A DNA stretch of 64,000 nt from Okamejei kenojei (Eukaryota), in NCBI GenBank assembly GCA_035221665.1, contig CM069147.1:44888001-44952000 (forward strand). The letters are read 5' to 3'. The position numbers were made by a program, and so were the translations under genes. The notes beneath the pieces are model-generated. The model saw only the letters and a program-made list of their open reading frames with translations. It had not been told where the DNA came from and did no database searches. Below are positions 9,698-49,437 of the stretch, piece after piece. Within the stretch, counting starts at the first letter, position 1; each line of letters opens with the position of its first letter.

Positions 9698-9876
9698 NNN
9701 NNNNNNNNNNNNNNNNNNNNNNNNNNNNNNNNNNNNNNNNNNNNNNNNNNNNNNNNNNNNNNNNNNNNNNNNNNNNNNNNNNNNNNNNNNNNNNNNNNNN
9801 NNNNNNNNNNNNNNNNNNNNNNNNNNNNNNNNNNNNNNNNNNNNNNNNNNNNNNNNNNNNNNNNNNNNNNNNNNNN
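9698..9876. other. Assembly gap (179 N)
   Basis: Run of N. Confidence 1.
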
Positions 9877-45474: not shown

Positions 45475-46032
45475 CCATCAGGGTTTTGAATTGGACACAG
45501 ACTTTTCTAAGTCAGACTTTTAAGAACACCAGGGCTTTGGATACCTTCCAGTTAAAATTATGGCAAACCTAGGCATCTAAATCAGCAGCTGACCTCCACT
45601 TTTCAAGGCAATACCCGTGGGCCTTTTAAATCACGGCTGTGTGGGTGAAAAGAAATCTTGTAAGTATAAGAAATCTTCAAAAGCTACTCTTTCTTGCAAG
45701 ACTTCTGTCATCAAGAGGAATTTGAAAAGCCTCTTGTGGAACAAGCTCAGAACAGAACTAGGACAGCAGGAAGATAGATCACTTGCTTTTAGCTCATTTC
45801 AGATACTCCTGTGGTAGTTTTACAAATGCATATGCGTGCCATCGTCAGTACATTGCAGGGCAAAGTATTGGTGGTAGATTTGCTGATGTCTGTATTGTTA
45901 ACTGTCTTGCTGGGTTCAACACCTGAAGTTACCAGGAAGGTAGTAAATATTGGCCCCAATTTTTATTTTTCTGAACTTTAGGGCAAATCCCTAAAGAACG
46001 TTTTTTGCCTGAGGAAGGGTGCTCGAATTTAG

Positions 46033-46700
46033 GTAGACACAAAATGCTGGAGTAACTCAGCGGGTGAGGCAGCATCTATGGAGAGAAGGAATGGACGACG
46101 TTCCGGATTGAGACCCTTCTTCAGACTGATGTGATTACAAAACTCATCTGGATATGGAATATAGGTCGACAATTGATGATTTAGCCCTAAAATGTGTAGT
46201 GAGACACAAAGTTCTGGAGTAACTCAGCGGGTCAGACAGCTTCTGTGGGGAGAATGGACCCTTCTTCAGACTGATTGTAGAAGTGGGTGGGGGGGAAAGG
46301 GCTTGAAAAGAGCCAACTGCAATCCCCGCTCAGGTGTGGTGAATATGTGAAAATCTTTGCTACCGAAGGCTGTGGAGGCCAAGTCCATGGATATTTTTTA
46401 AGGCCGAGATAGATAAATAGATTTTTGATTAGTGCAGGTGTCAGGGATTATGGGGAGAAGGCAGGAGAATGGGGTTAGGAGGGAGACATTGATCAGGCAT
46501 GATTGAATGACAGAGTAGACTTGATGGGACGGATGGCCGAATTCTACTCCTATTCCTTATGACCTACTACAATCTGAAGAGGGGGCCTGGCCCAAAATAT
46601 TACCCATGCATTCCCTCCACAGATGTTGCCTGACCCGCTGAGTTGCCCATGCATTTGTATTTTATTCATGTTTCCATCATCTGCTGTTTCTTATGTCTCC
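46033..46700. mobile_element. Cluster: PLE fragments (46033-46130, 46202-46290, 46570-46700) and a CR1 tail (~46330-46565, +)
   Basis: PLE tail and CR1 tail motifs as above. Confidence 0.8.
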
Positions 46701-47435: not shown

Positions 47436-48011
47436 AGTGTGTAAAATACATCTTCTATATGCGCTGGGACACATCCTCAGTGATGTGATCTGGGGTCATC
47501 GGGTGTTTTGGGTCTCACAACATCAGACACCCTCGCCCAGGCGACCCATCAGGCCCCGACTTGCGTCCCAGCAGCACCCGCCCACGGATCAGCCATTGTA
47601 ATAATCTGCAGGGGTTGGGAGACTCTAGTGCGTGGAGGGACTGGGCTCTGCCGGGCTCCTCCTGCGTCTCACCAGGTTCAAAGCCTGTGCGCTGCACCTC
47701 TTTCTCCTCCACTAGGCATTTCATTCTCGCCTGATGGATATTTAGGCCACGGTGGTTCATTATGCCTTTCCGTATTGGGTGTCTTTCTCATGAAAGACAC
47801 AGACTGGGCTGCTAACCCGGCCTGTCCCAGGTGCCGTCTCTCCGTGCCGGCAGCTGTCTCTCCAGTAGTCACCAAACTATTCCTGGTTGTTGCCTAGTCT
47901 ATTCCTAGGTGCCACTGGCTGAGCCAGACTTCAGTGTGAAAAACATACATCTTCTAGATGCGCTGGGACGCATCCTCAGTGATGTGACCTGGGGTCATCG
48001 GGTGTTTCGGG
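47436..48011 (-). mobile_element. Internally deleted non-autonomous derivative of an RLE-type (HERO-like) non-LTR retrotransposon, with terminal direct repeats
   Basis: 67-bp direct repeats at 47446-47512 and 47945-48011 (4 mismatches, period 499). The - strand ORF NHRGLNIHQARMKCL...QRTGFEPGETQEEPG resembles the second half of the N-terminal zinc finger region of HERO-like LINEs. It is fused to a 3' end (GSPGRGCLM..DPKHPMTP) that I recall from the same family. Confidence 0.65.
47468..47532 (-). ncRNA. Candidate non-circularly permuted hammerhead ribozyme
   Basis: - strand: GGGUGUC^UGAUGU-UGUGA-GACCC-(A/G)AAACACCC-N14-ACAUCA-CUGAGGA-U-GUGUC. Stems I (6 bp), III (6 bp) and II (4/5 bp) are in correct register with the core. 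GAAAC is intact in the second repeat copy. Confidence 0.5.
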
Positions 48012-48074
48012 ATTAAGAGATTAAAGTTTGTTTTTTTTTTTTTACGGATTATTTTTTGTGATGTGCATTTCATT

Positions 48075-48869: not shown

Positions 48870-49080
48870 GTGTAGGAAGGAACTGCAGATGCTGGTTTAA
48901 ACCAAAGCTAGACACAAAAAGCTGGAGCAACTCAGCGGGACAAGCAGCATCTCTCAAGAGAAGGAATGGGTGATATTTCGGATCGTGACCCTTCAGACTG
49001 AAGATCCGAAACGTCACACATTCCTTCCCTCCATAGATGCTGCCTGTCCCGCTGAGTTGCTACAGCTTTTTGTGTCTATC
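48870..49080. mobile_element. Fold-back PLE fragment
   Basis: Inverted arms meet at cccttcagactgaag (~48989-49003). Confidence 0.88.
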
Positions 49081-49143: not shown

Positions 49144-49437
49144 TTGATTGAACGATTGATTGATTGAAAGATTCAGCATGGAAACAGACCCTTCGTCCTC
49201 CCGAGACCATCGATCATTTCTTCACCCTGGCTCTGTGATCGCACTTTTGTATCCACTCCTTACACACAGATTTGCAGCGGGCAATTAACCTACCAACCCG
49301 CACATCTTCAGGATGTGGGAGGAAGTCACAGGGAGAACGTGCAAGCTCCACACAGGCAGCGCTCGTGGTCAGGATCGGACACAGGGTGTCTGATGCTGTG
49401 AGATAGCAGTTCTATCAGCTGTAATACTGTGCTGCCC
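49144..49437 (-). mobile_element. HE1-like V-SINE variant
   Basis: caattaacctaccaacc...gtgggaggaa..cacagggagaacgtgcaa is the reverse complement of the V-SINE body; (ttga)n tail. Confidence 0.75.

Follow-up and report, generated by a model that had tools for sequence, protein, structure and literature searches.

We lean, by a modest balance of the evidence, towards the view that LINEs of the HERO clade transpose via ribozyme-made RNA circles of up to 4 kb that are primed internally and copied by rolling-circle reverse transcription; a 535-nt unit would then be the first LINE-born retrozyme-like parasite, and multi-turn insertions would be fossils of single RNA molecules, edits included. The starting point is a 576-nt element on the minus strand (48011 to 47436) of a 64-kb window, by which we mean the whole stretch of DNA that was analysed. 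Its sequence marks it as a dead member of a HERO/Zebulon LINE family that is internally deleted and dispersed. The finding is real, recurrent and mechanistically informative; its architecture is partly known already, its mechanism apparently not.

A decayed, internally deleted HERO element

The element comprises the following parts (window positions).

47436..48011, minus strand: whole insertion of a HERO LINE that is non-autonomous and internally deleted; decayed, with 499 nt and ~77 nt of redundancy against a family unit of 535 nt
47933..48011, minus strand: partial repeat, on the upstream side, of the element's 3′-terminal sequence (from +14 to about +92, counted from the predicted cut), with the GAAA and CUGAGGA blocks present and the cleavage block absent
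47917..47942, minus strand: tail-to-head junction, where the 3′ end runs precisely into the 5′ UTR (genome position C17:44935917-44935942)
47759..47934, minus strand: piece of the HERO 5′ UTR ending at the first deletion, approximate bounds
47603..47758, minus strand: N-terminal ORF remnant with the second half of the zinc finger and the next residues, approximate bounds
47549..47602, minus strand: C-terminal ORF remnant up to the stop codon, attached via the main deletion
47468..47532, minus strand: predicted SGC-order (non-circularly permuted) hammerhead, with GGGUGUC^UGAUG, a GAAA block with stem III, and CAUCA-CUGAGGA-U; predicted cut at 47526/47525
47436..47455, minus strand: the family's fixed 3′ end (GAUGUAU, U-run, CACA), the putative internal priming site at ~+90 from the cut, with no poly(A)

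The direct repeat with a period of 499 nt that an initial annotation of this DNA had claimed proved real: positions 47443-47512 and 47942-48011 match over 70 nt at 93% identity with a spacing of 499 nt, and BLASTN extends the repeat to 79 nt at 91%. Its account of the sequence between the repeats was likewise borne out: HERO 5′ UTR sequence is followed by what is left of a zinc finger (NHRGLNIHQARMKC) and then by the final ~17 codons and the 3′ UTR, with no RT or endonuclease. The proposed unit length of 499 nt did not hold for the family, whose unit is 535 nt; the shorter period is private decay, because four deletions of 6, 15, 4 and 11 nt (36 nt in total), found in none of the other 147 unique copies, shorten the unit in the window copy. 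This copy lies 5.0% from the family majority.

The cleavage block GGGUGUC^UGAUG is readable on the minus strand at 47532-47521, with the predicted cut between 47526 and 47525 (GUC^UGAUG) and the equivalent upstream position at 48025/48024; the upstream repeat copy lacks the first 13 nt after that position. The window copy has no intact ribozyme: the downstream one carries CAAAA for CGAAA (G12>A, 47509), with which it is predicted to be inactive, and the upstream one lacks the cleavage block. An Rfam search over 44-52 kb of the window returned no ribozyme or hammerhead match and three weak matches below the gathering score.

The element and its surroundings are free of N, and the only N run in the window (179 N at 9698-9876) is distant from it. 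A 21-nt match to the ribozyme start, with one mismatch, lies on the opposite strand at 49383-49403; its flanks have no further HERO match, and it is probably due to chance. The window also holds a short repeat family with 76-nt inverted arms that are 88% complementary (48909-49078, 46031-46119, 46198-46286 and 46579-46656). Two HERO derivatives elsewhere, L020 and L133, sit in repeats similar to this family with little or no duplication.

A dispersed family and its autonomous relatives

The genome search proposed in the initial annotation revealed a family and not a one-off. Searching the organism's own genome (2.76 Gb) gave 1627 first-look candidates, and of 40 that were scored most covered nearly the whole element, at dispersed sites; many dispersed copies carry the same internal deletion. 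With at most one mismatch, the main internal deletion junction had 443 matches genome-wide and the tail-to-head junction 161, with 0 matches for the controls in both cases, and the family period is 535 nt. Two deletions gave the derivative. One, of ~130 nt, takes out the ORF start and the first two zinc-finger cysteines; the other, of ~3 kb, removed the RT, CCHC knuckle and endonuclease, is in frame and has no obvious microhomology. In the unit, a new ATG opens a 75-aa frame (L014:1758-1985 and family) that joins the N-terminus of HERO to its C-terminus; this frame has no Pfam match and is broken in the window copy.

The idea that the element is a non-autonomous derivative of a HERO-like LINE was upheld, as a partner is present in the same genome and the 535-nt unit matches both ends of such LINEs, mostly at 90-98% identity. 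Against fish RT proteins, the remnant frame scores 62-81%. A fish homologue from Astyanax, P0003, in which Pfam recognizes RVT_1 and a weak zf-RVT, finds long ORF copies in the own genome that match its residues 1-1084. The partner HERO has a single ORF in which motifs of an N-terminal zinc finger, an RT, a CCHC knuckle and a restriction-like endonuclease are visible. With the Tetraodon polyprotein AAN12398, which we take to be Zebulon, P0003 shares 64% identity; AAN12398 clusters with BAC82599, presumably HEROTn. Zebulon, HEROTn and HEROFr are reference elements of the HERO clade. Partner ORFs of families A and A-old are 55-67% identical to AAN12398 and those of B and C 42-44%; pairwise comparison with the Tetraodon and Takifugu reference elements gives 55-67% protein identity for A and A-old and 41-50% for B and C. 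Two family A ORFs (L071 and L078) reach 78-81% protein identity to P0003 of Astyanax. If the host is not a teleost, this similarity suggests horizontal transfer.

The layout is not special to the parasite, and autonomous HEROs have the same design. In five family A copies (L069, L081, L083, L084 and L087), part of the copy's own 3′ end recurs upstream, as it does in the older L088. Family B is young, with ~42% protein identity and a unit of 3980 nt; most of its 3′ ends lie at +228 to +242, and its insertions reach 2.7 units and 10.9 kb. Family C supplies most of a set of 387 matches and has a fixed end; among the first 100 listed of these matches are five two-ribozyme pairs 3.5-3.9 kb apart. 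The predicted ribozyme, fixed 3′ ends and terminal redundancy are shared by three autonomous HERO families (A, B and C), which settles in the affirmative whether autonomous partners have the redundancy. Family B matches (L091-L095, L244-L279) are 98-100% identical, some without stops over ~1000 codons, and the family was possibly active recently.

Fixed 3′ ends and scattered 5′ ends

Ends were mapped in the first 100 listed of the 443 junction matches (98 loci); removing 5 duplicates, 9 copies whose 3′ ends were damaged and 3 that had large insertions or were mis-extended left 81 copies. Their 3′ ends fell at +79 to +97 after the predicted cut, with 33 of 81 at +90, and their 5′ ends were scattered from -122 to -889. 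Copying of the template past one full unit, as first proposed, was evident in the 27 of 81 insertions that exceed one unit. Eight of the 81 copies have 5′ ends that pass the upstream cut, and this cut is read through in 17 of the 30 best full-length matches. The 13-nt gap between the cut and the upstream repeat is true of the window copy and not typical of the family; the distance is a coincidence, because a single copy of the 81 starts within 15 nt downstream of the cut while 8 read through it, and the suggested clustering of 5′ ends at the predicted cut was not found. With scattered 5′ ends and this read-through, the 5′ end was rejected as a marker of the cut. To the eye, 5′ ends seemed to accumulate at one full turn, but this excess was not significant (13 versus 8 and 8, P=0.13).

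None of 148 copies had poly(A). By contrast with the scatter of true 3′ ends (+85 to +97), internal junctions are precise. Sequence beyond the priming site was also represented: among 107 3′ ends, 24 extend into the head sequence YTG, compared with a background of 4% (P=7e-12), and the template therefore continues past the priming site. Target-site duplications of at least 5 nt were absent from 116 of 148 copies, and the longest measured 8 nt, in a count made without a control.

A predicted hammerhead in the 3′ UTR

The conserved blocks follow the order S-G-C (cleavage block, GAAA block, CUGAnGA block) in families A, A-old, B and C, all with an SGC core of UH, CGAAA and CUGAnGA(U), and this core is retained across families 40-45% apart in protein. 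Stem I reads UGAUG/CAUCA in A, UAGUG/CACUA in B and UUGUG/CACAA in C. Two of its five pairs are changed on both sides (GC/UA/AU and AU/GC), a covariation that represents three family-level events among related sequences, and pairing holds in 97% of cells versus 26-55% for slid controls. Stem III shows no covariation because all six of its pairs (6/6) are invariant. Stem II is weak: none of 13 ribozymes fits the published SGC descriptor in its strict form (uninterrupted stem II of at least 2 bp by G10.1-C11.1), and 8 of the 13 fit only with a relaxed descriptor in which N7 is free and a mismatch or bulge beside G10.1-C11.1 is allowed, which gave 0 matches in 1.92 Mb of shuffled sequence. Far-side pairing between stems I and II, judged by eye, is plausible in B, takes a different form in A and is not clear in C. 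We predict that the HERO motif is a self-cutting variant of the SGC-order hammerhead.

By descriptor, 80 of 148 derivative copies have an intact motif (0 matches in 2.56 Mb of shuffled sequence) and 4 of 148 have two. A pattern scan of metagenomes found three contigs with a family-A-type motif, which added little covariation. In family B, 13 of 48 selected matches have an extra T right before the cut-site A (L224, L225, L233, L234, L238, L241 and L243 among them), and two further matches have an extra A at the cut site. A single-copy variant near family C, L294 (C8:89781710-89781765), has a different 3′ strand of stem I.

Variants shared between turns of one insertion

Turns were compared in 180 mapped loci, of which 148 were unique and unrearranged and 49 had an overlap of at least 25 nt. 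Rare non-CpG variants of the upstream turn were repeated in the downstream turn of the same copy in 17 of 144 cases, with 1.6 expected. Family B gave 25 of 75 shared rare variants versus 0.55 expected, a divergence of 0.36% within an insertion and 0.69% between insertions, and concordance at 100 of 103 polymorphic sites (3 discordant); one of its insertions, L273, carries three private variants in all three long turns. Across the 535-nt family, overall divergence is barely lower within a copy (4.9%) than between copies (5.3%). The private variants common to successive turns speak for repeated copying of one monomer, although gene conversion between turns could be the source of some. Rolling-circle sequencing separates template errors from RT errors by the same logic (PMC11331410).

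The main deletion junction is ungapped in both turns in 13 of the 14 insertions long enough to tell, the fourteenth having a small local gap, and none of the 14 switches to the undeleted ORF at this point. With the deletion in both turns, the step from monomer to multimer therefore came after the deletion. No excess of gaps marks the crossing of the cut site (143 of 148, compared with 135-145 of 140-148 elsewhere), and 114 of 137 regex matches to the cut-site junction in the 535-nt family equal the exact majority sequence, almost all the rest differing by single substitutions.

In L103, an insertion of 1.75 units, the two turns have eight A>G changes in common; within the overlap no A>G change is confined to one turn, and there is no T>C. 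Ordinary unshared mutations are interspersed among the A>G sites. Its edited motif occurs twice in the whole genome, 535 nt apart, both times in L103 itself. These changes suggest RNA editing. ADAR is not established as the agent, because the predicted fold of the circle pairs only 2 of the 9 A>G sites in L103, and for the same reason the idea that ADAR sites lie in helices of that circle found no support. A DNA-level tandem duplication was also rejected as the origin of L103, given a sub-unit copy without the intervening 5′ UTR. The monomer of another copy, L005, folds at -190.5 kcal/mol, versus -172.6 +/- 6.9 kcal/mol for 30 doublet shuffles. L023 has an A>G excess too (7 versus 0 T>C), and the family as a whole shows no general excess (229 A>G versus 158 T>C, on 139 A and 93 T).

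Some copies have turns that differ. L013 is a mosaic whose turns disagree at four subfamily sites, and L026 and L106 have the same difference, G upstream and C downstream. The +63 subfamily site is discordant (T/G) between turns in 3 of 45 copies, and in the others the turns agree if CpG decay is allowed for.

A proposed route through RNA circles

We consider it fairly probable, from the sequence patterns above, that ribozyme-released RNA is rejoined into circles, primed internally and reverse-transcribed by a rolling-circle mode. The 535-nt family of the window copy likely moves, as do its autonomous parents, via an RNA circle cut by the predicted hammerhead and likely reverse-transcribed by the parent HERO protein. 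A source locus with two intact ribozymes would be transcribed, and both predicted ribozymes would cut to release a cut-to-cut monomer, whose ends, held by stem III, could be rejoined by the reverse reaction or by an RtcB-type ligase. The HERO RT/endonuclease would bind the UGUAUUU end signal and prime internally from nicked target DNA via a few bases of microhomology. The RT would then copy backwards through the junction and halt at random points, in many cases beyond one turn. Copies running past the upstream cut would regenerate source loci with two ribozymes, which would explain how the redundancy is renewed. The window copy would have stopped 13 nt short of the upstream cut and later lost G12. 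LINE RTs (R2 and L1) do perform rolling-circle reverse transcription on RNA circles in vitro (PMC11331410).

Three other explanations bear on the same observations. That the window structure is a one-off, produced by two independent insertions or a local duplication, is exceedingly improbable: the period of 499 nt is found in the window copy alone, yet the same layout occurs at many dispersed loci and in autonomous relatives. A nicked circle, in which the ribozyme cuts, the monomer is held by base pairing and not covalently closed, and the RT jumps the nick onto the same or another RNA, strikes us as quite unlikely. It accounts equally for the fixed 3′ end, the precise period and the variants shared between turns; the R2 RT does perform template jumping, jumps between RNAs would explain mosaics such as L013, and the extra T (13 of 48 selected matches) or extra A (two matches) at the cut could be jump scars. 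However, the 535-nt family shows no surplus of gaps where the junction is crossed, and the extra T looks like one inherited sublineage among matches that had been selected for anomalies.

It is unlikely, though deserving of more weight than either of these, that the elements follow a route like that of Penelope and HeT-A, in which uncleaved linear transcripts would start in the upstream partial copy of a tandem locus and be copied from the last unit; tandems would arise by insertion, unequal exchange or DNA circles, gene conversion would keep the turns alike, and the ribozyme would only trim 5′ ends or be mostly suppressed. The position-specific difference in L026 and L106 is what a linear two-unit source predicts, and an Inr-like TCACACT at the tail-to-head junction also favours this route. 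In Penelope elements with partial tandems, transcription begins in the upstream copy (PMC2377424). Yet linear copying can only shrink the redundancy, while both turns carry the derivative's deletion; internal junctions are precise where true 3′ ends scatter, poly(A) is lacking, 5′ ends form no significant cluster at any start site, and the assembly holds no parent copy of the L103 edited motif. An active ribozyme would, moreover, sever the priming signal from the body. Rolling-circle copying of a closed circle is our preferred reading, and more than one route may operate.

Discussion

Among LINEs with a restriction-like endonuclease, R2 has a 5′ HDV-like ribozyme and deletion derivatives that keep both ends; its ribozyme cuts at the 5′ end, freeing a linear template, and 5′ ends cluster there. 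HERO resembles R2 in endonuclease type, in a self-cleaving RNA (predicted for HERO) and in derivatives that keep both ends, but its cut lies within the 3′ UTR and copies read across it. The partner LINEs resemble the Zebulon and HERO LINEs of fishes in their ORF and in a partial tandem with a variable upstream copy; Bouneau and colleagues reportedly described partial tandems for Zebulon of fishes in 2003. What is added here is the 535-nt non-autonomous derivative, a predicted hammerhead after the stop codon and copy-level evidence of repeated monomer copying.

The initial description of the architecture as retrozyme-like stands for the small non-autonomous unit and fails for the type I hammerhead, tandem arrays and Penelope origin. 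Retrozymes, as described by Cervera and de la Pena 2020 (PMC7229834) and in the 2026 bioRxiv preprint of Li et al. (10.64898/2026.07.22.740005), need two ribozymes for monomer release, and their proposed circular RNA would be copied by the RT of another element. Non-LTR retrozymes are likewise small and non-autonomous with one hammerhead per unit, and the 535-nt unit has no RT or endonuclease. Retrozymes differ in having type I hammerheads, tandem arrays and an origin from Penelope pLTRs (same sources), whereas the 535-nt family is a dispersed deletion derivative of a HERO LINE, matches HERO ends and not Penelope, has the order S-G-C and not C-G-S, and has a fixed internal priming site. Tandem units with complete ribozymes are lacking in the window copy, which has none, and rare in the family, with two in 4 of 148 copies; no tandem array was seen among these 148, the longest insertion reaching ~1.8 units. 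By its sequence features, the family resembles a retrozyme in its working but fails the published family definition. The name "Hero" occurs nowhere in the available portions of the non-LTR retrozyme literature compared (PMC7229834; 10.64898/2026.07.22.740005).

Type-SGC hammerheads have been validated by cleavage assays and, in Eckert et al. 2023 (PMC10085705), are known from metatranscriptomes and not from genomes of known organisms. The HERO motif agrees with the type as given there in its S-G-C order, UH cut, CGAAA, extra U after CUGAnGA and linker lengths inside the descriptor (5-6 and 14-15 nt), and departs from it in the stem II mismatch or bulge, in N7 (G, U or A) and in its vertebrate LINE host (PMC10085705). 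Penelope-like elements and HeT-A also form partial tandems with a variably truncated upstream copy, and PMC2377424 says that how the repeat might be regenerated is not obvious; Penelope-like elements have another RT clade and endonuclease and a repeat tied to the promoter, and no fixed priming site past a ribozyme is described in the passages compared (PMC2377424). In the literature that we searched, which took in few subscription papers, nothing connected HERO with a ribozyme or with circular RNA.

The usual assumption for LINEs is a linear RNA template with priming at its 3′ end, and we know of no LINE for which a circle-copying route is established. If our reading is true, priming by a LINE clade within a self-processed circle would represent a new transposition route, the partial tandems of Zebulon and HERO would be explained and a means of renewing Penelope-type repeats suggested, and the SGC hammerhead would gain its first host in a known genome. 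The family also shows how two deletions can turn an autonomous element into a retrozyme-like parasite, the parent being present alongside its derivative. An RT that lacks site specificity and copies circles over 11 kb would be of interest for RNA-templated gene insertion.
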